64,000 bases of DNA from Oligoflexales bacterium (GTDB taxonomy: Bacteria > Bdellovibrionota_B > Oligoflexia > Oligoflexales > JALZUQ01): assembly GCA_023301565.1 (NCBI GenBank), contig JALZUO010000028.1:123-64122 (forward strand), given 5' to 3'. The translations under genes were made by a program, and so were the position numbers. Within the stretch, counting starts at the first letter, position 1. Each line of letters begins with the position of its first letter. The notes below the pieces were generated by a model that made no database searches, had not been told where the DNA came from, and saw only the letters and a program-made list of their open reading frames with translations. Positions 2,068-31,231 of this stretch are shown one piece after another.

Positions 2068-3612
2068 CTAGTGCCTAGAAGGCCTTGATGGTCGCGAATC
2101 TCTTTTTTGCCGCTTTGGCCTAGAGTCGCTTGTTCTGCCGCCACGAAATCCGCGGTTTGAATCTCTGCCGCCACCGCCGCCGCCACTTCTACCGCGCCGG
2201 TTAAACGAAGGACGTCCGCCTCTTCTAAATCCGCCGCCGCCGGAAGCAGCGCTGTCCAGAAGGGTCTGGAGCCTGCTAGGACTTACACCGATGTGTTTTG
2301 GTCCTTCAACTGGCATGCGTTTTTCTAAAAAGGCTAATGCTTTTGCTAGTAAGATCTCAGGCTCTTCCGTGGTTAGAGCAACTTGCGCTTTTTTAATCCA
2401 GCGCTCTTCGATCCAAGCTTCTTGTACATCTGCTAGAAGCTTGTTTTCTAAAAGGTCTCTAGTAGTGTGTAGGTCCGGCAAAAACTCAAAGCGAAACGGT
2501 AGTTTTTCTTTGCGAAGGTCTCTAAAGCCTGCGTTTTGTAGATCCGAGATCGAGGCAAAACTTACGGCAGTACCTTTGTTTCCGGCACGACCCGTACGAC
2601 CAATCCTATGCGTGTAGCGGTCTTTGTTGTCTGGAAAGTCGTAGTTGATCACATGTGTTAGGTCGGGGATATCTAGCCCACGGCTTGCCACATCTGTAGC
2701 AACTAGAAACTTTACTTTGCCCTGGTGGAAACGCTCGATGGTTCTGCGGCGTTCCGGCTGAGAGTAGTCACCGTGCAGGGCTGCAACGCTGATGCCTTTT
2801 CCACCCAGAAGGCTACAAAGCTCATCTACGCCACGTTTTGTGCGTGAAAATAGAATGGTTTTCTCTGGGTTTTCAATCACAAGATAACGCATAAGAGCAT
2901 CCTGTTTTTCTTTGTGTTTTACAAGGTAAACAGATTGGTCAATGTCCTTGTGGGCCTCTGTGCCGTCGCCTTTGGCTTCGATGCGCTCAGGGTTAGAAAA
3001 CTGGTCGTTTACAAGTCTTAAAACAGGTTTTGGCATGGTTGCCGAAAATAAAATCTTTTGAGATATGGCAGGCATAAGCTCAAGGATGTTTTTGATGGCT
3101 TCTAAAAAACCCATTTCCATCATTTCATCGGCTTCATCTACAATTAGTACCTTTGGGGTAAAGCGTGTGATGTTTTTGCTGCTTAAAATATCCAGCAGAC
3201 GTCCTGGGGTTGCTACTACCACAGAGCTTTTGCCGTTTAGCTGGCGGATTTGTTTGTCGTATGGAACACCACCGACAACCTGGCAGATAAAGTCGTCTTG
3301 GTACTTATCTTTGCTTTTTGTAAACTGACCAAAGGCTTTTACAACCTGGGTGCATAGCTCGCGCGTAGGTACAAGCACGAGCACTTCGATGCTGTTGTCG
3401 TGCTTTAGGTTTTGCAGTGCGGGTAGTGCAAAGGCTGCCGTTTTGCCAGAGCCAGTCTTTGCGACTCCAATGATGTCTTTGCCTTCTAAAATGGGCGGAA
3501 TGCAAAGCGATTGAATTTCCGTAGGCTCAGTAAAGCCATTATCCGCAATGTATGAGAGTAAACGTTTTGAAAGTCCCAATGACTCAAAATTAGATGATTC
3601 TTTTGTATCCAC
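2068..3612 (-). CDS. DEAD-box RNA helicase (DeaD/CshA-like)
   Basis: Q motif, AKTGSGKT, PTREL, TPGRL, DEAD, SAT, HRIGRTGRAG; RG-rich tail. Confidence 0.95.
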   Translation of the reverse strand: MDTKESSNFESLGLSKRLLSYIADNGFTEPTEIQSLCIPPILEGKDIIGVAKTGSGKTAAFALPALQNLKHDNSIEVLVLVPTRELCTQVVKAFGQFTKSKDKYQDDFICQVVGGVPYDKQIRQLNGKSSVVVATPGRLLDILSSKNITRFTPKVLIVDEADEMMEMGFLEAIKNILELMPAISQKILFSATMPKPVLRLVNDQFSNPERIEAKGDGTEAHKDIDQSVYLVKHKEKQDALMRYLVIENPEKTILFSRTKRGVDELCSLLGGKGISVAALHGDYSQPERRRTIERFHQGKVKFLVATDVASRGLDIPDLTHVINYDFPDNKDRYTHRIGRTGRAGNKGTAVSFASISDLQNAGFRDLRKEKLPFRFEFLPDLHTTRDLLENKLLADVQEAWIEERWIKKAQVALTTEEPEILLAKALAFLEKRMPVEGPKHIGVSPSRLQTLLDSAASGGGGFRRGGRPSFNRRGRSGGGGGGRDSNRGFRGGRTSDSRPKRQKRDSRPSRPSRH

Positions 3613-3806
3613 AGATTTTCCTTTGATGTTCCCTTGAGTAGTCTTTATCGACTGATAGGTTAGGCCACACAGAGAGATCGAACGAAAGGGCCGAACAGGC
3701 TGGATGGAGACCTTGTTTACATTATAATCAGCCCCTAGCCAACCTAAGTATTAAAAAACCTAAGAATTATAGGAAACTATAGGCATCTCCATGGTAAAAT
3801 TCCTGC

Positions 3807-4646
3807 ATGGATCCACGTGTTTTTCAAATATGCAGCCTTTCTTGCTTTGCAGCCCTTGGATTGGGGGCTGGCATACTTCCGGCCGATGGTTTTAGGTTTG
3901 GGGTTTTTCTCGGCGTGGCAGGGCTGAGCGAATGGTTAGGGCACCTGGTTTTTAAGCGTACAAAGAGGTTTACACTTAGAAGTACACTGATCACCACCCT
4001 TTCTTTGTGGATACTGTTGCGTGTGGATTCGTTGCTTTGGCTTTGTTTAGTGCCTTTTTTGGCTATTGCGAGTAAATACCTTTTTCGCTACTCGGTGGGT
4101 GGCAGCTACAAACACTTTTTTAATCCAGCAAACTTTGCCATTGTTTTGCCTATATTGTTAGGTGCACCCGTCTGGCTAAGCCCCGGAAACTGGGCCGGCA
4201 ACGCAGGTGTTGGTATGTGGTTTTTAGCTCTGGGTGTTTTGATCACCTTGCAGGTCCGAAAACTAGATACCGCCGTTTGGTTTTTGGGCCTTTATCTAGG
4301 CTTACATCTTGTTCGCCATCTTTGGCTAGCAGATCCGCACGCCATCTACCTACATAAGCTGCAAAACCCAGGGTTAATCCTTTTTGCTTTTTTTATGATC
4401 ACAGACCCTAGATCCACACCTACAACGGCCTGGAGTAGGGGAGTGTTCGCAGCTCTGGTGGGGGTACTCAGTTTTTATTTAAGTGCCAAAAACTTTGGGA
4501 CCCACGACTTTTTTTATGTTTTGTTTTTTGCCTCTATGTTTACACCTGTTTTAGATGTTTTTTCAGGGCGCTCTGCATTTGAATGGAAACAAAAAAACCT
4601 TACTGTTTATCAACCAAGTCTTAGTAAATCAAACCAAGCTGTATAA
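3807..4646 (+). CDS. Stand-alone RnfD/NqrB-like integral membrane protein
   Basis: Multi-TM protein; HFFNPANF and FFMITDPRSTP resemble the RnfD/NqrB FNPA and MATDP motifs; no other rnf/nqr genes nearby. Confidence 0.75.
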   Translation: MDPRVFQICSLSCFAALGLGAGILPADGFRFGVFLGVAGLSEWLGHLVFKRTKRFTLRSTLITTLSLWILLRVDSLLWLCLVPFLAIASKYLFRYSVGGSYKHFFNPANFAIVLPILLGAPVWLSPGNWAGNAGVGMWFLALGVLITLQVRKLDTAVWFLGLYLGLHLVRHLWLADPHAIYLHKLQNPGLILFAFFMITDPRSTPTTAWSRGVFAALVGVLSFYLSAKNFGTHDFFYVLFFASMFTPVLDVFSGRSAFEWKQKNLTVYQPSLSKSNQAV

Positions 4647-4659
4647 AGGAGCGAAAAAG

Positions 4660-6096
4660 ATGCAACCTCAAAAATGTAGATCCAGCCTGTGGCTCACCCT
4701 TGTTGGAATATTAGTAGGTGGTGGTCTTGTTGCTAGTTCACCTGCACAAGCCTTTTGTGGCTATTTTGTTGCAAAGGCGGGAAGCGAGCTATTTAATAAA
4801 GCGTCTAGGGTGGTTCTTGTCCGTGACGAGGATAGAACTGTGATCACGATGGCCAACGATTACCAAGGAAACGCTTCTGAGTTTGCCATGGTCGTACCTG
4901 TACCGACCGTATTGGAAAAAAGCCAGATCAATGTAGGTGAGAATGCTTGGGTAGACCGGGTGGATGGCTTCACCGCGCCACGCCTTGCAGAGTACTTTGA
5001 TCCGGATCCGTGCCAAACACGCTTCTATATGGAACGGGCAATGTCTATGCAAAATGCTCCCGGAGCACCGATGAAAAAGGCCCGTAATAAGAGCGCTAAA
5101 TCTCTTGGCGTAAAAATAGAGGCAACTTATGAAGTTGGCGAGTACGATATTCTCATTTTAAGTGCAAAACAGTCTGATGGCCTGCAAACATGGCTGATAG
5201 AAAACGGTTATAAGATCCCGCGCAAAGCCACTAAGATTCTTCGTAGCTACATAAAGCAGGGTATGAAGTTCTTTGTTGCCAAAATAAATATAGGGCGCCA
5301 AGAAAAAGCAGGTAGGCAGATGCTCAGACCCTTACAGATAGCCTACGAGAGCAAGCGCTTTATGTTGCCAATTAGGCTTGGTACCTTAAACGCAAAAGGC
5401 CATCAAGACCTGTTTGTCTATGCCATCACCAAAAAGGGTCGGGTAGAATCAACGAACTACCAGAATACCCGTATTCCAACCGGGCAAGAGATTCCAGTGT
5501 TTGTCAAAAAGGATTTTGCAAACTTCTACCGTGCGATGTTTGATAAACAGGTAGAAAAGGACCATATGAAAACCGTGATCACAGAGTATGCCTGGAACAT
5601 GGGCTGGTGTGACCCTTGTGCAGCGGACCCTTTGAGTTCTAAAGAGTTAAAGCAGCTAGGGGTGTTTTGGCTGGGGCAAAAAGATCTGTCGACGAAAAAA
5701 AATGGGTTTGGACTTGTAAAGCCTAACCCGAGAATCCGCAGACCTCGCCCAGGCGGCCGTGGGCAAGAAGCCTTTGTAACGCGGATGCACGTGCGCTATA
5801 CGGCCAAGAAGTTTCCGGAAGATCTACTTTTTCAGGTAACCAAGGATACGAAAAACTTTCAGGGCAGGTACGTACTGCGGCACCCGTTTCGTGGCGAGTC
5901 AAAGTGCGAGCTAGCAAAAGAATACAAGGTCACGGTCCGCAAACAGCAAGAAAAACGAGTACAAGAACTGGCAAACCTGACTGGATGGATGCCTGCAGAT
6001 CTTCGTAGAAAGGTTGCTTGGGTTGGTGGAAAACCAGCAGACAACGGAGCTGATAAGAAAAAGAAGAAAGATAAGTGGTGGCAAGGGATCTGGTAG
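4660..6096 (+). CDS. DUF2330 domain secreted protein
   Basis: Signal peptide then AQA-FCGYFVAKA, ITMANDYQG, FAMVVPVP, FMLPIRLG, EYAW, CDPC; ATG 4660 has an upstream AAGGAG (track start 4555). Confidence 0.85.
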   Translation: MQPQKCRSSLWLTLVGILVGGGLVASSPAQAFCGYFVAKAGSELFNKASRVVLVRDEDRTVITMANDYQGNASEFAMVVPVPTVLEKSQINVGENAWVDRVDGFTAPRLAEYFDPDPCQTRFYMERAMSMQNAPGAPMKKARNKSAKSLGVKIEATYEVGEYDILILSAKQSDGLQTWLIENGYKIPRKATKILRSYIKQGMKFFVAKINIGRQEKAGRQMLRPLQIAYESKRFMLPIRLGTLNAKGHQDLFVYAITKKGRVESTNYQNTRIPTGQEIPVFVKKDFANFYRAMFDKQVEKDHMKTVITEYAWNMGWCDPCAADPLSSKELKQLGVFWLGQKDLSTKKNGFGLVKPNPRIRRPRPGGRGQEAFVTRMHVRYTAKKFPEDLLFQVTKDTKNFQGRYVLRHPFRGESKCELAKEYKVTVRKQQEKRVQELANLTGWMPADLRRKVAWVGGKPADNGADKKKKKDKWWQGIW

Positions 6097-6141
6097 TACT
6101 ATGGATCTAGTAGTGCCCGGTTTTTTGTTGACCGAACACAG

Positions 6142-6166
6142 AAATGCCGCCATCTAGGCGGCTTTT
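6142..6166. terminator. Short hairpin between convergent genes
   Basis: AAATGCCGCC ATCTA GGCGGCTTTT. Confidence 0.6.
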
Positions 6167-6194
6167 CTTATAGTACTATTTTTTTCCGTGCTCT

Positions 6195-8153
6195 TTATTT
6201 TGTTGTAGTACCTACGATGATTTTAAATTTTTCTAGGTGTTCCTGTGAGAGCTGCTTTCCTGGTTCTACCTCAATACGAAGGTTTGCTTGAAGCAACGGT
6301 AGGTTGAAGTGCAGGGTTCCACCTTTTAAAAGAGCCACGTGTCTTGTAGATTGGCTTTCATCTAGTGTGTAGTCTAGGGCGGTTAAATTGCCCTCACTGT
6401 CTCTGATGCCAATGCTTACTACCTGGCGGTCTGTTTCCAGTTTTAAATCATAAGTACTTAAAGCAAACTTTGTAACAAACTCTCGCATAGCAGGAACCAT
6501 AAAGCTTGCATAGTCGCTGTTCCGTACAGAGTAGGTCTCAGAGTTGGACTTAAAAGAACCGTGTTCTTTGATGCGCTGAGACAGGTCTATTTGCGACTGT
6601 CCTACAGACGCGTCCGAGTCTTGGCTGACGTCTTCGGCTTTTGTGACAATGCCGGCATAGAAGTATCCAGTTGTTTTTTCTTCAAGAAGGTCCATAAGAG
6701 CTTCGCCAACTACATCATTCATGGTTGCGCGGACGCTTGAGCTACTGCTTTCAATAGTCTGTTTCATTTTATCGTTGTGGTAAGTAAAGGTATGTCTTCT
6801 AACTATTCGTTTGAAGTCCTTTTGTACTCTTAAGCTATAGCGTGCATACAAGTCGTGTATTTTCATACTGCTACTGTTTTTGCGAAAGTCTTTTAGGTCT
6901 TGATACTGCTTTTCATTATGAATAAAAGGTGTCGACCTGCGGTCTTCAGTATGTGGCTCAAAGAACGAGCTTGTAGCATTGCTTGCATTTAAATTCAATA
7001 CCCTAGCCCCGGTTACAGTTCCTTCTACACAACCTAGGCGCGCTCCGGCTGCGGCTATATCAAGGCTATTTGAATAGGTCTGAGGTACTGGTGCATCAGG
7101 CTCAAAGTCGCACAGATCTCTTCCATTCATAAAACAATTTGAAATAGCCCGCGAAGTGTAGGTTCCAGGAGTTAAAACCTTGTCAATGATTTTAGAGCAA
7201 GTGGCTTCCAAGGTTGGGAAAAAGTATCTATAGGAATACTGCGTTTTTGGGTTATCAAGCTTACAGTCTTCAGGGTTTGCCTCACATTCTGATAGGTTGA
7301 CCCAATTATAACTGTCTTGTTCGTAGCCTTCGATTTCTGAGCTTTCAAAGCATTTTGATGCGTTGGAGTTTTCGCGACCAACGTGTTCAGAGCTGTCTTC
7401 ATCAGACACGTTTAGCAGCGCCAAAAGAGGGTTTTTTCTATACTCAGGAGATGATGGGTCTGTGATGCGGTCTCTTACATATTTAAGCATGCTGCACATG
7501 CTCATTTCATCCGAGTCCCCACCAGCACCGAGCTTTACAGATTCTGCTAGTTGGCGGCTTAGTTCGATGGCTTTTTGGTAACTATCTGTTTGAAGTATTG
7601 CATACTTCGCGATAGCTGGAAGCGTCTCAACGCTATATTTAATTTTGAACAGTTCGTTAGTGCTATTAAGTTCGTTTGTTCTTTTTCCACTGCCATCAAA
7701 ATACTGGATTGAATCTTCCCTGATGGTGGAAAATGGGTTTGCGTAGCTTGCTGGTTTCCATTTGTCATCCCAAATTTGAAAAAGAAGCCTGTCTTGATCA
7801 TCCCGGTAATAAATGGCGTCGTACAACCAAGTACCACTGCCTTGAAGGTGAGGCTCTATAAATGCGGTGGGTGTGATGATATGGTAAGTGATGGGGTACT
7901 CGTGTAGAGCGGTTGCCATACTCTCAATGCCTTTAGCTAACGCAAGTTGCACATTGTGCATGCTTTGGCTTTGATCTACAGAGATTACCACGTCGGTCAT
8001 ACTGCGTGTTTCACTTCCACCAAACGGAATCTCCACGACCTTTAAAGCTCCTGTTGTGTTGGATAAGAAGCTCGTGTCCGTGCAGCCTGCTGCAGCAACT
8101 GTTATCAGTAGCCAAAAAAGTACTGTTTTGATCCGAATTAAACTCATAATCAC
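6195..8153 (-). CDS. Lipoprotein with vWA/MIDAS-like domain and Cys-rich insert
   Basis: Lipobox AAAGC; DVVISVDQSQSM (DxSxS); GGDSDE; VSDEDSS. Confidence 0.7.
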   Translation of the reverse strand: MIMSLIRIKTVLFWLLITVAAAGCTDTSFLSNTTGALKVVEIPFGGSETRSMTDVVISVDQSQSMHNVQLALAKGIESMATALHEYPITYHIITPTAFIEPHLQGSGTWLYDAIYYRDDQDRLLFQIWDDKWKPASYANPFSTIREDSIQYFDGSGKRTNELNSTNELFKIKYSVETLPAIAKYAILQTDSYQKAIELSRQLAESVKLGAGGDSDEMSMCSMLKYVRDRITDPSSPEYRKNPLLALLNVSDEDSSEHVGRENSNASKCFESSEIEGYEQDSYNWVNLSECEANPEDCKLDNPKTQYSYRYFFPTLEATCSKIIDKVLTPGTYTSRAISNCFMNGRDLCDFEPDAPVPQTYSNSLDIAAAGARLGCVEGTVTGARVLNLNASNATSSFFEPHTEDRRSTPFIHNEKQYQDLKDFRKNSSSMKIHDLYARYSLRVQKDFKRIVRRHTFTYHNDKMKQTIESSSSSVRATMNDVVGEALMDLLEEKTTGYFYAGIVTKAEDVSQDSDASVGQSQIDLSQRIKEHGSFKSNSETYSVRNSDYASFMVPAMREFVTKFALSTYDLKLETDRQVVSIGIRDSEGNLTALDYTLDESQSTRHVALLKGGTLHFNLPLLQANLRIEVEPGKQLSQEHLEKFKIIVGTTTK

Positions 8154-26079: not shown

Positions 26080-27768
26080 ATGAGTCATCGGCTAACGCAG
26101 GAATCTGGCGGGGGGAGCCTTAGACCTTTTTTCAGTACCCGTCTTTGCACGGTTGTGCTTCTTTTATTTCTTCTTCTAGCCTTTTTGCCAACCACTGGTT
26201 TTAGTTTCCAAGAACCCGACTTTAGCCGCGATGCCCGTATTGTGCCCGGTGAAAACCGGGAAAATATTTACGCATGGAGCGAGCAAGAGTTCTCTCAGGT
26301 TAAGGCAGCAGGGTTAAAGCATGTATTGAATTACCCTGTCGATGTAACTGGGCTTGTTGTTCCGGACGGGGTTTTTCGCCGTATTCTTGACGGAGAAAGT
26401 AAGCAGTTTAGCCATATGCTAGCAACGGAAGCTGCAAGGGTTTATACGGGCTATGATTCTTTTTCGAGTTTTCAAGATTGGATGGGGCTGATTGATGTCG
26501 AAGGAAGCTCAGTCCGTCTAGGTGAAACACGTATAGAGCGTGGCGGTGTAGATGGGTTGACCTATAGCTGCGGGTTTTGTCATACGAGCAAACTTTTTGG
26601 CAAAGCCGTGGTTGGACTTGGTAACCGGTTTGCACGGGCAAACGCTACCTTTGGTTTGGCACAGTCGTTTTTTAATCGTTTTGACTCTGAGCAGCTTGCA
26701 TTAGCTACGCATGTAAGCCCTGAAGAGATGGCTTTGTCTAAGGATGTAGAACATAAGATGGCCTGGGTCGGGCAAAAAGAGCCGGTAGCACTGGGTCTAG
26801 ACACCTCTTTGGCGCAAGTTGCGCTTTCTTTGGCAAAGCGCGGGCAAGGGCCATGGGCTGAAATGCGGGCAGACTCTGCAAACAGCCCAAGAGCAAATGC
26901 CTTGAGTTCACACGTGGCAGACAGCAAGCCTGCTACCTGGTGGGGGTTGAAGTACAAGACCCGCTGGCTTTTGGATGGTTCGGTTGTGTCTGGTAACCCT
27001 GTTTTTACAAACTTTTTGTGGAACGAGCTTGGTAGGGCCACTGACCTTAAAGAGCTAGATCAATGGCTAAAACAAAACAAAAAAGTAGTGCAAGAGCTCA
27101 CAACTTACGTCTATGCAAGCAGCCCTCCGTCGTTGGCACAGTTTTTTGACTTAAAAGAGTTTGATTTAAAAAGTGCGAAACGTGGCCAAAAGCTTTTTAC
27201 AGATAACTGTGCGCGTTGCCACGGTGAGTACAAAAAAGCATGGGATAGTGCAGAAGGGTTATCGTTAGAAGAAGCCATTCAAACCACAGGCGTTCGCTAC
27301 CATGAAAAAACCCCTGTCATCAATGTTGGTACGGACCCGGGCAGGTGGCAAGGGATGCAGTACTTTGCAGGACAGCTCAATAGCCTGCAAATTTCAAAAA
27401 ATGCAGGGGCAGTGGTAGAGCCTCAACGCGGCTATGTGCCGCCTCCTTTGGTTGGTATCTGGGCGCGGTGGCCATATCTGCACAACAACAGTGTCTCTTC
27501 TCTGTGTGAGCTTTTAACCCCTTCAAGCGAGCGCAAGAAAAGCTATTATGCCTCCGAGCCGATTCTTCAAGATCGTGATTTTGATTTTGAATGCAACGGC
27601 TACCCGGACGTGCCGTGGCTGCACCAAAGAAGTGAATTCTACTTTGATACCCAAAAAGAAGGAATGGGAGCTATGGGGCATGATAAAGGAATTTTTGTCG
27701 TAGGCGGAAGGTCCATATTTTCTGCGCAGGATAAGCTTGATTTAGTGAAGTTTTTGCAGACGCTCTAG
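26080..27768 (+). CDS. Secreted di-haem c-type cytochrome, RoxA/rubber-oxygenase-like
   Basis: CGFCH and CARCH; VGTDP; YVPPPLVGIWARWPYLHNNSV resembles the RoxA-type APYLHNGSVP motif. Confidence 0.75.
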   Translation: MSHRLTQESGGGSLRPFFSTRLCTVVLLLFLLLAFLPTTGFSFQEPDFSRDARIVPGENRENIYAWSEQEFSQVKAAGLKHVLNYPVDVTGLVVPDGVFRRILDGESKQFSHMLATEAARVYTGYDSFSSFQDWMGLIDVEGSSVRLGETRIERGGVDGLTYSCGFCHTSKLFGKAVVGLGNRFARANATFGLAQSFFNRFDSEQLALATHVSPEEMALSKDVEHKMAWVGQKEPVALGLDTSLAQVALSLAKRGQGPWAEMRADSANSPRANALSSHVADSKPATWWGLKYKTRWLLDGSVVSGNPVFTNFLWNELGRATDLKELDQWLKQNKKVVQELTTYVYASSPPSLAQFFDLKEFDLKSAKRGQKLFTDNCARCHGEYKKAWDSAEGLSLEEAIQTTGVRYHEKTPVINVGTDPGRWQGMQYFAGQLNSLQISKNAGAVVEPQRGYVPPPLVGIWARWPYLHNNSVSSLCELLTPSSERKKSYYASEPILQDRDFDFECNGYPDVPWLHQRSEFYFDTQKEGMGAMGHDKGIFVVGGRSIFSAQDKLDLVKFLQTL

Positions 27769-27782
27769 CGTTAGAGCGGCCC

Positions 27783-28718
27783 TTATCTTCTTTTAGAGCC
27801 GATGATTTCTAAAAGTCTGTGGTCTAATAGCGCGTCGTCGAAGTTAGATAAGTCTATGTCTTCTATTGTTTCATTGGGTTTAATTGCTACATTGTGTTCG
27901 CTATTTCCCTTGTTAGGAACTCTAGTATCTGAAACAAAGCCGCTTTCTGTTCGGTAGGAGCGATATCTGGGTAGTTCGCTGGCTTGGCCAATACCCACTT
28001 GTTCTTTGATTTTGGCACGGTTTTCAGATCTGGCGATTTGGCTGTAGTGCGAGCTGACTTTTGCGCTTAAGATTGCAAGGGCTGCTTTACGGTTTGCTTG
28101 CTGACTTCGGTGGTTGCTTATAGCAACGCTTAAGCCTGTGGGTCCATGCGTAGCTCGAATAGCTGTTGCTGTTCTGTTGACGTGTTGACCGCCGGGACCA
28201 CTAGCAGCAGCAAAGGCGACGATGTCAACTTCTTCTTCCCTAATGAAAACGTTGTTTTTAGGGTCTGGCGGGGTCACAGTCACAGCTAGTTTGTTGGTGA
28301 ATACCTGCCCTTTACTTCCCCCGCCAACAGTAAATGTTTGAGCGCCAGCTTCAAAAATAAAGGTTTTATAAGCCTCCTTACCCCGTACGATCATAAAGAC
28401 TTCTTTTAGTAGTTTAGTCTTGCTATCAACCGCTTCTTGAACGATTTCATGCTCAATTCCTTTCGCTCTGGCCAGTCTTTGGTAGCGGTTGTAAAGCTTC
28501 TCGAGGTTTATCTGGTTGTCCTTCCCACCACCTATTGATCGGATTTGAACTAAAAATTCAGTCTGCGAGTAATATGGGTCGTTGTATTTGAGTAGTTCGT
28601 CTCTCAGCGGGTCCCTAAGCTCTAGAGCTGTGGATAAAATGGATTTAGCGTGAACCTTAGCGGCCTGGGCCATGTCCGGATCTTTGGCGATTTCAAGGTA
28701 TTCGGCTCTTTCTCTTAG
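27783..28718 (-). CDS. Class-I release-factor homologue (RF1-like), C-terminal reading frame
   Basis: ASGPGGQHVNRTATAIRATHGPTG, RSQQANR, RSY and LVQIRSIGGG; the frame is open upstream of ATG 28673 as LRERAEYLEIAKDPDM (RF1 DPEM-like). Confidence 0.85.
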   Translation of the reverse strand, partial: LRERAEYLEIAKDPDMAQAAKVHAKSILSTALELRDPLRDELLKYNDPYYSQTEFLVQIRSIGGGKDNQINLEKLYNRYQRLARAKGIEHEIVQEAVDSKTKLLKEVFMIVRGKEAYKTFIFEAGAQTFTVGGGSKGQVFTNKLAVTVTPPDPKNNVFIREEEVDIVAFAAASGPGGQHVNRTATAIRATHGPTGLSVAISNHRSQQANRKAALAILSAKVSSHYSQIARSENRAKIKEQVGIGQASELPRYRSYRTESGFVSDTRVPNKGNSEHNVAIKPNETIEDIDLSNFDDALLDHRLLEIIGSKRR

Positions 28719-28984
28719 GCTTCTACTAACTTTGTATACTTTGAGCTTATCGCGGTTATTTGGCTATTTTTTTCAGTACCTACATAAGTGCCGTCGGTGT
28801 AAGAGGAGTTGATGGCCTTCATTTGTGGTGCGATTTCTTTTTCGATGTAGTTAATCATTTCTACGAAGCCAGGGCCAAAACTGGCCTCATTTAGTTCTTC
28901 ACATATGCTTGCGCGTATCGAGGTTGAAATTAAAACGAATAAGAAAAGCAAAATATTTTTGTAGGTTATGTATGATTTTTTCAT
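28715..28984 (-). CDS. N-terminal reading frame of the release-factor homologue, with Sec-type signal peptide
   Basis: MKK...ILLFLFVLISTSIRA-S signal; ends AISSKYTKLVEA* (compare RF1 ALSREYAQL); joins the downstream frame by a -1 shift. Confidence 0.7.
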   Translation of the reverse strand: MKKSYITYKNILLFLFVLISTSIRASICEELNEASFGPGFVEMINYIEKEIAPQMKAINSSYTDGTYVGTEKNSQITAISSKYTKLVEA

Positions 28985-29039
28985 AAAAAATTATACCAGG
29001 AATTTCCAGCTTCTGTTAGGTGAGCACGGGTTTGGGTAT

Positions 29040-29987
29040 TTAGCCTTCAATCGAGAGTCTCTTTCCTTTTTTATACGTCGCTAGCCCTTTGGGAATAGCC
29101 TGCTGAACGACCTCCAAAAAAGCATCTAGGAGGGGTTTCTTCCACTGGTCGCGGCGAAAAACAAAGCTGACTTCGCGCATGGGGGTAGGGCCTTTGAAGG
29201 GTCTTACCATGGCGTCCTGCTCCTTTTTAGTTAGACCCTCCGCAAAAAGCTGAGGTACCAGTGTGTAACTATTCATTTTTTTTACAAGGTAACGCAGAGT
29301 TTCGAGGTTTCCGCCAGCAAACCTTACCCGGCCAAGGCGGCTAGTCTCAGCGTTTAGGTTGCAGTAGTTAATCACTTGGTTTTTAAAACAGTGACCGTCT
29401 TGCAAAAGCCAAAGCCCATCAGGACTAAGGTCTTTGACAGATACAGAGCTTTTTTTACTTAGCTTGTGGCTGGGGTTTCCGTAATACAAAAAAGGCTCGT
29501 TGAATAAAAATCTTTCTCTTAGCCCGGCTTCGTTTAGAGGGGTTACAAGGATAGCCGCGTCGATTTGATCGTCTCTAAGTCCTGCGACAATGTTTTCTGT
29601 TTTTAGCTCGTCTAAGACAAGGTCTACCTTTGGATATTCGCGTGCAAAATTTTCAATAAATAAAGGCACCAAGTAAGGTGTTAGGGTAGGAATGATACCG
29701 ATGCGGATGTCACCTCGAAGCTCTGTAGCTGATTCGCTCCCGATAGATAGTAGCTTTTGGTGCTCTTGCTGCAAAACGGCAGCCTGCTCGAGGATGGCTT
29801 TACCCTGCTGCGTGCGTACGATGGGTTTTTGATTGCGGTCAAAAAGGACTACGCCTAGCTCATCTTCTGCCTTTTGCACCTGGATACTTAGGCTGGGCTG
29901 CGAGACGGCGCAGGCTTTTGCCGCAAGGCCAAAGTGGCGGTACTTATCTACAGCTAGAATATAACGTATCTGCGTTAGAGTAGGCAT
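29040..29987 (-). CDS. oxyR: Hydrogen-peroxide-inducible LysR regulator OxyR
   Basis: LysR HTH (HFGLAAKACAVSQPSLS), GIIPTL, LLQDGHCFKNQVINYC; divergent from ahpC; start MPTLTQ at 29987. Confidence 0.92.
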   Translation of the reverse strand: MPTLTQIRYILAVDKYRHFGLAAKACAVSQPSLSIQVQKAEDELGVVLFDRNQKPIVRTQQGKAILEQAAVLQQEHQKLLSIGSESATELRGDIRIGIIPTLTPYLVPLFIENFAREYPKVDLVLDELKTENIVAGLRDDQIDAAILVTPLNEAGLRERFLFNEPFLYYGNPSHKLSKKSSVSVKDLSPDGLWLLQDGHCFKNQVINYCNLNAETSRLGRVRFAGGNLETLRYLVKKMNSYTLVPQLFAEGLTKKEQDAMVRPFKGPTPMREVSFVFRRDQWKKPLLDAFLEVVQQAIPKGLATYKKGKRLSIEG

Positions 29988-30017
29988 GTAAGACTCCAAT
30001 AATGCACCATAAAAATG

Positions 30018-30032
30018 ATAGCTAAAAACTAT
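30018..30032. promoter_or_regulatory. OxyR-type operator half (ATAG-N7-CTAT)
   Basis: ATAG-CTAAAAA-CTAT lies between the divergent oxyR and ahpC. Confidence 0.65.
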
Positions 30033-30139
30033 CGTTATAAATATATAATATATTTTAAATATCTGCAAAAAACGACGATTCTCTTATGTAAGGCAGCTGT
30101 TGCAGCTTGCAGCAGCAAACCAGATAAACGTACTTATGA

Positions 30140-30688
30140 ATGGAGAAGAAAATGATTGGAATAGGAAAACAGTTTCCCGAGTTTAATGTAACCGGAGTGA
30201 AATCTTCTGAGATGGATACAGCATTTGAGAAGTATAGTCATGAAAGTTTAAAAGGTAAGTGGAGTGTCATCTTTTTTTATCCAAAGGACTTCACCTTTGT
30301 TTGCCCAACAGAGATCAAAGGCTTTGCAGATCTAAACGGGGAGTTTGCCGATAGAGATACGCAAGTATTTACAGCAAGTATAGACTCTGAGTTTGTCCAC
30401 CTTGCTTGGCGTCAAAGTCACGAAGACCTAAAAAACTTACCGTTTCCTATGCTATCAGATGTAAAAAGGGAGCTATCATCAAGTTTAGGGATCCTAGACC
30501 CAGAAGAAGGCGTATCGCAAAGAGTGGCCTACATTGTGGATCCAGGCGGCATCATTCGGTTTGTGTATGCAACTGATTTGAACGTGGGAAGAAACCCGGC
30601 AGAGGTTTTGCGCGTACTTGATGGTCTGCAAACTGACGAGCTATGCCCGTGCAACTGGAAACCAGGCGAAGAAACGATTCAAGTTTAA
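30140..30688 (+). CDS. ahpC: Peroxiredoxin AhpC
   Basis: FFYPKDFTFVCPTE; QTDELCPCNW (AhpD-partnered type). Confidence 0.95.
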   Translation: MEKKMIGIGKQFPEFNVTGVKSSEMDTAFEKYSHESLKGKWSVIFFYPKDFTFVCPTEIKGFADLNGEFADRDTQVFTASIDSEFVHLAWRQSHEDLKNLPFPMLSDVKRELSSSLGILDPEEGVSQRVAYIVDPGGIIRFVYATDLNVGRNPAEVLRVLDGLQTDELCPCNWKPGEETIQV

Positions 30689-30718
30689 ACCACAACACCT
30701 TAAAGAGGAGAAAAACCT

Positions 30719-31231
30719 ATGCAAGCGATTAAAGAACTTATACCGGATTTTGCCAAAGACGTGCGAATCAACTTTTCATCTATTACCGGGGATCTTGGCG
30801 CCCCGGGTCTAAGCCAAACCCAGGCGCATGGCGTGCTTTTATCAGCAGCTCTCCAGCTGGGTTTTGATCAACTTAGCAAAGAGATCGCAAACGCTGATAC
30901 TTTGAACGAGCAGGAAGTGCTTGGCGTAAAAGCTGCCGTTGCAATCATGGGTATGAATAATATTTACTATAGAACCATGCACCTAATGAGTGACAAAGAA
31001 GTAAAGTCCTTGCCTGCTAAGCTTCGAATGAACGTGATTGGCTCGCCACCAAACGAGAAAATCAACTTTGAAATATACTCGCTGGCTGTTTCTGTTCTTT
31101 CTGGCTGCGGAATGTGTATCAACGCTCATGTAAATGAATTAAAGAAAGCTGGACTAGGAAATGAAGGGGTTCAATCGATCATCCGTATTGCATCGGTCGT
31201 AAATAGCGCTTTTATAAGTACAAGGCTTTAG
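30719..31231 (+). CDS. ahpD: Alkyl hydroperoxide reductase AhpD
   Basis: IPDFAKD, MGMNNIYYR, LRMN, SLAVS, GCGMCINAH. Confidence 0.93.
   Translation: MQAIKELIPDFAKDVRINFSSITGDLGAPGLSQTQAHGVLLSAALQLGFDQLSKEIANADTLNEQEVLGVKAAVAIMGMNNIYYRTMHLMSDKEVKSLPAKLRMNVIGSPPNEKINFEIYSLAVSVLSGCGMCINAHVNELKKAGLGNEGVQSIIRIASVVNSAFISTRL

Follow-up and report, generated by a model that had tools for sequence, protein, structure and literature searches.

Where would a release factor that carries an export signal meet a ribosome? The question is posed by a minus-strand gene of about 400 codons at positions 27783-28984 of a 64,000-nucleotide stretch of DNA from an Oligoflexales bacterium (GenBank assembly GCA_023301565.1, contig JALZUO010000028.1, positions 123 to 64,122), the whole of which we call the window. 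Class-I release factors (RFs) and their known bacterial offshoots, ArfB and PrfH, act in the cytoplasm of the cell that produces them; the protein considered here would combine an export signal with a ribosome-dependent catalytic centre and a dismantled stop-codon reader. A preliminary description of the sequence had proposed that it is an exported effector. Our analysis identifies the locus as a broken member of a rare and patchily distributed family of RF1 paralogues, here named SP-RF. We tentatively suggest, with somewhat less than even confidence, that the intact form is exported and releases nascent chains on ribosomes outside the producer's cytoplasm.

The RF1-like gene is spread over two frames offset by -1: open reading frame 1 (ORF1, 28715-28984) and an open frame at 27783-28763. 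ORF1, read from 28984 to 28715 on the minus strand, holds the first 89 codons, which cover the signal peptide and the first part of domain 1, and a premature TAA at 28715-28717. Its N-terminus is MKKSYITYKNILLFLFVLISTSIRASIC, and its 89 residues read MKKSYITYKNILLFLFVLISTSIRASICEEL...SKYTKLVEA before the stop. The second frame, also on the minus strand, has 326 open codons (28763 to 27786) and a stop at 27783-27785; it encodes the remainder of domain 1, the decoding superdomain, the GGQ domain and the C-terminus, of which the public annotation recognizes just 296 aa from an ATG at 28671-28673 (P0001). Both frames align without gaps to P0121, an intact homologue of 401 aa: ORF1 to residues 1-88 (48/88 identical) and the second frame to residues 82-398 (233/317 identical, 74%). 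Homology runs in ORF1 to KLVE-A and resumes in the second frame at L-RERAEY. The break thus lies between residues 89 and 90, at GCC TAA (28715-28720, minus strand), where one base is missing relative to P0121; base 28718 is common to both frames, being the last of the Ala89 codon and the first of the next-frame Leu codon. When the frames are joined, the protein has 400 aa, with exactly one base gone and no residues lost, and the preliminary description was therefore right that the two frames together make an RF1-colinear protein of this length.

The break is in the DNA and is no artefact of assembly, because it is identical in contigs of runs from two studies: Logan contigs from two runs, which may be the source samples (depth 50 and 31), extend across the stretch without a difference, and one of 196 bases from a run of another study shows 0 differences and no gap over 28624-28819. 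As it stands, the window copy cannot make the full protein, and it is probably a recent pseudogene and most likely inactive. Since the downstream frame carries no further damage, the frameshift is either recent or, less likely, tolerated. Its products would be an exported fragment of 89 aa and, at most, a 296-aa remnant with no targeting signal. Programmed ribosomal frameshifting was rejected as very improbable: there is no slippery heptamer of the form X XXY YYZ in the 49-base overlap (from TAG at 28764-28766 to TAA at 28715-28717), the A-rich run upstream of the break is followed directly by a TAG in the -1 frame, and the break is absent from homologues, the genes for P0121 and the copies in genomes G041, G051 and G057 being unbroken. 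We therefore read the break as a mutation. The prfB gene, in which a programmed +1 shift occurs at CUU UGA behind a Shine-Dalgarno sequence, is likewise a release-factor gene spread over two frames, but the window offset is -1 rather than +1, lacks a slippery site and has an unbroken homologue.

The locus belongs to the bacterial class-I release factor superfamily: the second frame carries a PCRF domain (PF03462; 51.1 bits, cut-off 24) and an RF-1 domain (PF00472; 83 bits, cut-off 35). Identity as RF1, RF2, PrfH or ArfB is excluded by scores under the curated cut-offs, which were 150.8 bits for TIGR00019 (cut-off 423.25) and 149.5 for NF001859 (cut-off 400) among prfA models, 101.1 for the prfB model TIGR00020 (cut-off 370; SPF absent), 78.4 for the PrfH model TIGR03072 (cut-off 166.65) and 35.1 for the ArfB model NF006718 (cut-off 100). 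The window frame and seven of seven other family members score 136-227 bits against the prfA models (cut-offs 400-423) and fall under every other cut-off too. Furthermore, the host genome (2.78 Mb, 184 contigs) has four loci with an RF-1 domain including the window gene, so that the refuting case named in the preliminary description, in which this gene is the genome's only RF1, does not hold. The others are a 353-aa prfA with PVT (514 bits against a cut-off of 423), which has rho and prmC as its neighbours, a prfB with SPF (473 bits against 370) and a 139-aa arfB (128 bits against 100). The window protein is 31% identical to the host's own RF1, and the other genomes that carry SP-RFs also have canonical factors.

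Catalytic and decoding parts of the protein have fared differently. The GGQ motif (28185-28193, minus strand) lies within SGPGGQHVNRT, and GGG stands in place of PxT at 28317-28325, both exactly where the preliminary description had put them. GGQ is invariant in our family alignment of 11 sequences (A4) and in the same alignment with one canonical RF1 added (A3), and the invariant columns include its flanks, HxPTG, RSQxxN and RxY. It is present in 16 of the 16 listed proteins without PxT and in seven DNA-derived copies, a count that for the latter holds partly by construction because only GGQ-containing frames were printed. The degenerate stop-codon recognition loop QTFTVGGGSKGQVFTN (28293-28340, minus strand) replaces the Q-R-V-P-x-T-E-x-x-G-R-x-H-T-S of RF1. 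Among the RF1 residues described as contacting the stop codon are G120, E123, Q185, T190, H197 and T198 in E. coli numbering (PMC3974865); mapped by HMMER alignment to solved RF1 chains, the window protein has G, D, T, G, F and T at these positions, and Pro188 is deleted. Across the family the loop varies in length and sequence and is rich in Gly, Lys and Asn (e.g., FEFTNRGLTYTN, YYENKTKGKIYTN and FQRNKGNKNKGDVFTN), most members have an eroded helix-5 tip motif, and an aromatic-Thr-Asn/Ser triplet is mostly retained.

The predicted structure is consistent with this assignment. An AlphaFold2 model of P0121, built from an 11-row alignment (mean predicted local distance difference test score 82; predicted template-modelling score 0.68), finds its best structural matches in ribosome-bound RF1, RF2 and mtRF1 (7m5d_A, E 1.5e-19); the preliminary description had suggested such a comparison with RF1. 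Template-modelling (TM) scores against ribosome-bound RF1 and RF2 are 0.58-0.68 over the whole chain and up to 0.82 over domains 2-4 (6gwt_v: TM 0.82, root-mean-square deviation 3.1, 255 columns), while the closed crystal forms 1gqe, 1rq0 and 2b3t match less well (TM 0.36-0.48). In the model, the four-domain architecture of a class-I RF is kept.

What sets the family apart is the N-terminus. In the window protein, a predicted Sec-type signal peptide occupies residues 1-25 (28910-28984, minus strand), with the n-region MKKSYITYK, a 14-residue uncharged core NILLFLFVLISTSI, then RA and a likely cleavage site IRA|S. The same layout of Lys or Arg, an uncharged hydrophobic stretch of 10-23 residues, small residues and a Cys was recognized in 15 of 20 family rows (the window, P0121 and 13 others) with a purpose-written script that scores signal-peptide features, used in place of SignalP. 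The remaining five are short calls or fragments: P0123 and P0125, which start inside or after the segment, the 239-aa fragment P0156, a duplicate case and a 281-aa piece from G067. Just ahead of that piece, G067 encodes a segment arranged in the same way (MKRLSCLVTFLALFPFSMAHG...LPGC), and so does the G253 copy. Thus, homologues do carry the segment, and the combination that the preliminary description had picked out, namely a Sec-type signal with an intact GGQ and no PxT, is real and defines a family. In a survey of 373 GGQ proteins, each of at least 300 aa, a signal-type N-terminus was found in 0 of 350 proteins with PxT or SPF and in 11 of 23 without either. The charge is positive ahead of the core and neutral or acidic past it, and the segments end in AxA-like sites (IRA|S, AWA|D, IRA|D, TSA|A); this charge distribution, together with the short cores and the AxA-like ends, suggests a cleaved Sec signal rather than a membrane anchor. 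The window protein thus has the sequence features expected of a substrate of Sec and signal peptidase I, and we infer that SP-RFs are exported by Sec.

The lone cysteine just past the predicted signal peptide (Cys28, codon 28901-28903, minus strand) is also a family trait: a Cys lies 4-17 residues past the hydrophobic core in all 15 rows with a complete N-terminus, and in 12 of the 15 it is the sole Cys after the core. Lipoproteins carry a lipobox, of the pattern [LVI][ASTVI][GAS]C, directly ahead of the modified Cys. Here the three preceding residues are ASI, GDI, ISL, AVF, SQR, DQK, STI, SYN, DPS, AAN or IAY, with a single lipobox-like case in G067 (LPG-C), and a lipoprotein (signal peptidase II) reading of the Cys was accordingly rejected.

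Substitution patterns indicate that this N-terminal segment is both translated and under constraint. In the G170, G279 and G253 copies, three close orthologues whose three pairs are not mutually independent, the ratio of nonsynonymous to synonymous rates (dN/dS) is 0.06-0.10 over the whole gene (dS 0.30-0.55), 0.04-0.07 over the RF body and 0.28-0.34 over codons 22-80, which include the signal and Cys, and rises to about 1.1-1.3 in the 21 codons upstream of the first Met. Purifying selection on GGQ, whose absence would by the preliminary description have refuted its reading, is therefore borne out by these ratios and by conservation of the motif and of the RF-1 domain. These three copies (loci L064, L066 and L067; genomes of 1.2-2.0 Mb for G170, G279 and G253) form a distinct SP-RF subtype with a longer N-terminal region, the loop FQMPYEKRFNPRYNSDVWVN and either SGGGGQNANK or SGSGGQNANK at the catalytic motif.

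The family is rare and scattered. Among 5.8 billion protein clusters, the closest relative of the window protein is P0002 (359 aa, 74% identity), and the next best reaches at most 34%; P0121 is a longer gene call from the same cluster, with the same N-terminus as the window gene. When P0002 was compared exhaustively by HMMER with 1.84 billion cluster representatives, only the window's own product exceeded 50% identity, and a set of proteins without PxT and SPF stood among the best 150 matches at about 30% identity. Whole-genome searches added copies found as DNA in G041, G051, G057, G067, G170, G253, G279 and G371. Other searches returned little: no longer protein matched ORF1 alone at E <= 10, an A4 profile search among 5.8 billion proteins was dominated by canonical RF1 and added only P0271, and contig scans for P0002 or P0121 DNA gave nothing in genome contigs and nothing related or one 26% match in metagenome contigs. 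The ESM Atlas held generic RF clusters only, and PLSDB plasmids had no match of at least 60% identity, all of the matches listed there starting no earlier than residue 69, as is expected of canonical RFs.

A maximum-likelihood tree of 50 rows groups SP-RFs with RF1 and separates them from RF2 (support 99). They form two clades there, of which the larger has 13 rows, the window among them (support 93), and the smaller 6 (support 95). Constraining them to one clade gives a slightly better likelihood (p = 0.55 in the approximately unbiased test), so the sequences are compatible with a single origin within the RF1 branch, with caution on account of long branches. The window protein (27900-27960) and P0121 share a C-terminal insertion, RSYR.E.GFVSD.RVPN.GN.EH.V.I.PN..IEDIDLS, that resembles the G371 copy (L062: RSYKRKIGFVNDTRMEG), though the tree puts G371 in the other clade. 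Two further proteins met in the searches, P0124 (481 aa) and P0127 (477 aa), are RF1s with an internal tandem duplication of about 120 residues over the PxT loop and GGQ domain, which may be a real duplication or an assembly artefact.

Distribution is patchy at every level that we sampled. In the window's phylum (a single class, 131 species genomes), a third full-length factor occurs in G000 alone (1/131), the extra matches in G007 being short frames on small contigs, and no orthologue was found in 40 relatives. A second phylum, reached via P0140, whose carrier is labelled 'MAG: Bdellovibrionaceae bacterium', has 8 SP-RF carriers among 401 genomes sampled, which is a lower bound because at most four candidates per genome were scored; the 10 genomes there with at least three matches are these 8, G432 with a second canonical RF1 and G330 with fragments. 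The order of G041 has an SP-RF in 4 of 38 genomes. Because the genome sets of the two phyla have no genome in common, the family spans at least two phyla in patches. The two canonical RF1 genes of G432 (L069 and L071) both encode P-x-T, and a paralogue or assembly contamination is possible.

A second broken copy was found in G067 (L050, G067:C468, minus strand, about 4996-6450), where an in-frame TAG lies between ...AGDHEMS and LAKEELMAIEKEV; the signal peptide and Cys upstream of it are intact, as is the GGQ body downstream. Since two of the nine copies seen as DNA, this one and the window's, are broken, the gene is dispensable. Sporadic distribution and two broken copies fit, without proving, a dispensable accessory gene such as a weapon.

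How, then, could an exported release factor find a substrate? The GGQ loop is known to position water only inside the peptidyl-transferase centre, so the conserved GGQ domain implies a ribosomal target, and because the periplasm has no ribosomes, an exported SP-RF would meet them outside the producer's cytoplasm. The intact protein would cross the inner membrane by Sec, have its signal cleaved and meet ribosomes in prey, competitor or lysed cells, where, needing no stop codon, it would enter the A site and set nascent chains free; translation would be shut down, or ribosomes would be stripped for digestion. The lone Cys may tether the protein to a partner by a disulfide. We infer that action on foreign or released ribosomes, by codon-independent chain release, is the most economical reading, and delivery to prey or competitor ribosomes is conjecture on our part. 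A bolder form of the idea, possible but rather unlikely, is that SP-RFs form a novel class of anti-ribosome weapon, 'rogue' release factors that predatory or competing bacteria secrete and bring into other cells, that hydrolyse peptidyl-tRNA at any codon and that use the Cys as a disulfide tether to a carrier. The tether would be released on entry into the reducing cytoplasm of the target cell, after which the factor would enter elongating or stalled ribosomes and abort protein synthesis catalytically.

Several observations weigh against export to foreign ribosomes. The preliminary description's effector proposal stands as far as a signal-bearing GGQ family goes, but its other part is not upheld: the window copy is frameshifted, and in the five SP-RF loci that we inspected there was no delivery or translocation domain, secretion-system gene or immunity gene, nor any conserved neighbour, the neighbours all differing. 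A Sec signal alone does not bring a protein into another cell, and export itself is predicted here by one purpose-written heuristic. Furthermore, surviving decoding residues (G120, T198, an acidic residue at 123 and an aromatic one at 197) indicate that SP-RFs may still read some feature of the A site. The broken state of two of nine copies counts on the same side, as does the fact that the window organism belongs to a different phylum from the Bdellovibrionaceae-labelled carrier, and no RNA run containing the window stretch is listed.

Alternatively, SP-RFs may be exported and yet not act as hydrolases on foreign translating ribosomes, serving instead as stoichiometric A-site blockers, as factors that help to take apart ribosomes from lysed cells so that their nutrients can be scavenged, or in a ribosome-independent periplasmic role for which the RF fold has been reused. 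The export features are as compatible with this as with chain release on foreign ribosomes, and the lack of a delivery apparatus fits action on material that is already accessible. We nonetheless regard it as unlikely, since neither a blocker nor a ribosome-independent protein would need GGQ, and the invariance of GGQ, RSQxxN, HxPTG and RxY in A4 and A3, with the strong constraint on the RF body (dN/dS 0.04-0.07), argues that a ribosome-bound catalytic function has been kept. A cytoplasmic location would supply a substrate if the N-terminus were an uncleaved anchor that held the RF body on the cytoplasmic face of the inner membrane, there to release chains from translocon-stalled ribosomes independently of the codon. 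Codon-independent GGQ rescue factors are known (ArfB, PrfH), and the uncharged stretch reaches 21-23 residues in five members (P0155, P0241, P0254, G051 and G371). However, the positive charges before the stretch and neutral or acidic residues after it predict an N-in/C-out topology, the cores of 10-16 residues in 10 of 15 rows could not reach across a membrane, the longer stretches finish with small polar residues like those of a c-region (e.g., AGAGQP and ASAPTAFSAT), and the genomes already have arfB. A tethered rescue factor is thus quite improbable.

Two further explanations would place the product in the producer's own cytoplasm or rescue the window copy, and both seem very improbable to us. 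If translation began downstream, the hydrophobic segment would be untranslated and the family would be a codon-independent cytoplasmic RF1 paralogue, a view in keeping with one public gene call, that of P0002 (from JGI), which begins at an internal Met past the hydrophobic segment. Yet the upstream segment is open and in frame, with the n-h-c layout and Cys, in all members with complete N-termini, even though members are just 21-29% identical to P0121 in A4, and its dN/dS of 0.28-0.34 in G170, G279 and G253 differs from the 1.1-1.3 or so found before the first Met. Similarly, the window copy might still function, through a -1 shift at GCC UAA or as a 296-aa cytoplasmic product from the internal ATG at 28673, given that the downstream frame is open and undamaged for 326 codons, that the break is fixed in contigs of two studies and that prfB offers, by analogy, a classic precedent for a frameshift in a release-factor gene. 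Against this, the shift needed is -1 rather than the +1 of prfB, no X XXY YYZ heptamer is available and the A-rich run meets a TAG in the -1 frame, the gene for P0121 is unbroken, and no Shine-Dalgarno-like sequence precedes the internal ATG. We therefore retain, as our tentative preference, a broken gene whose intact relatives would be exported to release chains on ribosomes elsewhere.

The surroundings of the window gene are of an ordinary kind. On one side lies a convergent plus-strand gene for a secreted RoxA-like di-haem-type cytochrome c of 562 aa (26080-27768), and on the other a divergent cluster (29040-31231) that encodes an OxyR-like regulator of the LysR type, an AhpC peroxiredoxin and a CMD/AhpD-like protein. 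Together they make up an unremarkable oxidative-stress set, and nothing visible connects them with the RF-like gene. GC content across the gene (0.41-0.46) resembles that of the flanks and gives no hint of a genomic island, and PADLOC gave no family match. In the nearest relative, G001, the RoxA-like neighbour is present (57% identity) and the next gene encodes an unrelated membrane protein, so neither gain nor loss can be read from its synteny. A promoter-like site, CTAACA-18 nt-TATAAT (28990-29019, minus strand), has a TG before the -10 box (extended -10, TGgTATAAT); one such site was found against 1.6 expected by chance, and the evidence for it is accordingly weak. The -10 box ends 5 nt upstream of the ORF1 ATG and no Shine-Dalgarno sequence is visible there, so the transcript may be leaderless.

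At the other inspected loci, the G041 copy neighbours a serpin and a 1191-aa secreted protein, the G067 copy a trypsin-like protein, and the G051 and G057 copies Ser/Thr kinases; a VWA protein is also among the neighbours of the five, and no RtcB gene is. The kinase genes adjoin SP-RF in two of the five loci (L049 in G051, 3564-4973; L051 in G057, 3260-4396), and one of the two kinases has an FHA domain, a pairing that may be due to chance in kinase-rich genomes.

Literature searches for an exported or secreted release factor found nothing relevant, nor any toxin based on a release factor, in agreement with the preliminary description, which knew of no comparable system. A survey of the superfamily does not use the terms 'signal peptide', 'secreted', 'periplasm', 'transmembrane' or 'Bdellovibrio' in its main text, though its supplements may list further architectures; it treats ArfB and PrfH as further bacterial versions of the superfamily (PMC6514570). 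A transcriptome study of Bdellovibrio, in the accessible part of its text, has the ordinary RF1 alone, Bd0069 (PMC2797640). The fold and chemistry of SP-RFs are those of known class-I RFs, while their architecture, implied location and probable role are apparently new. If they act on foreign ribosomes, they would represent a new mechanism of antagonism or predation, the catalytic and codon-independent release of nascent chains, and would be a naturally occurring RF variant in which to study what sets off GGQ insertion when no stop codon is present. Otherwise, they would be the first case of a release-factor fold taken up for a role outside the cytoplasm. The window locus is itself broken, and its value is as a pointer to a family with intact members.

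Should the effector reading be right, the functional analogues of SP-RFs would be the 16S rRNases colicin E3 and cloacin DF13 and the ribosome-inactivating proteins. These are nucleases or N-glycosidases that have domains for receptor binding and translocation and are paired with immunity proteins; no such part was found at the SP-RF loci inspected, and we know of no toxin built on a release factor. ArfB, ICT1 and mtRF-R (C12orf65) resemble SP-RFs in the peptidyl-tRNA hydrolysis proposed here, which would depend on GGQ and dispense with a stop codon, but they consist of a single GGQ domain (about 140 aa) and a basic C-terminal tail, whereas SP-RFs have about 400 aa, domains 1, 2 and 4 and an export signal. 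PrfH (RF-H, the partner of RtcB2) is likewise a GGQ factor with a decoding-type domain that lacks the normal stop-codon motif, and it has been described as an accessory gene linked to conflict (PMC6514570). It has no domain 1 and lies beside rtcB, whereas SP-RFs have domain 1 and no RtcB gene nearby; PrfH is also cytoplasmic and protective, unlike the role proposed for SP-RFs. The closest likeness in plan is to RF1 (prfA), with which SP-RFs share the order of PCRF and RF-1 domains, the GGQ, RSQxxN and RxY motifs, a predicted fold that superposes on ribosome-bound RF1 and a position on the RF1 side of the tree. In contrast to RF1, SP-RFs lack PxT, carry a predicted N-terminal signal peptide and a Cys, do not lie beside prmC and are accessory genes in about 1-2% of genomes; in the window protein, the loop is two residues shorter and at least three stop-codon contacts are changed.

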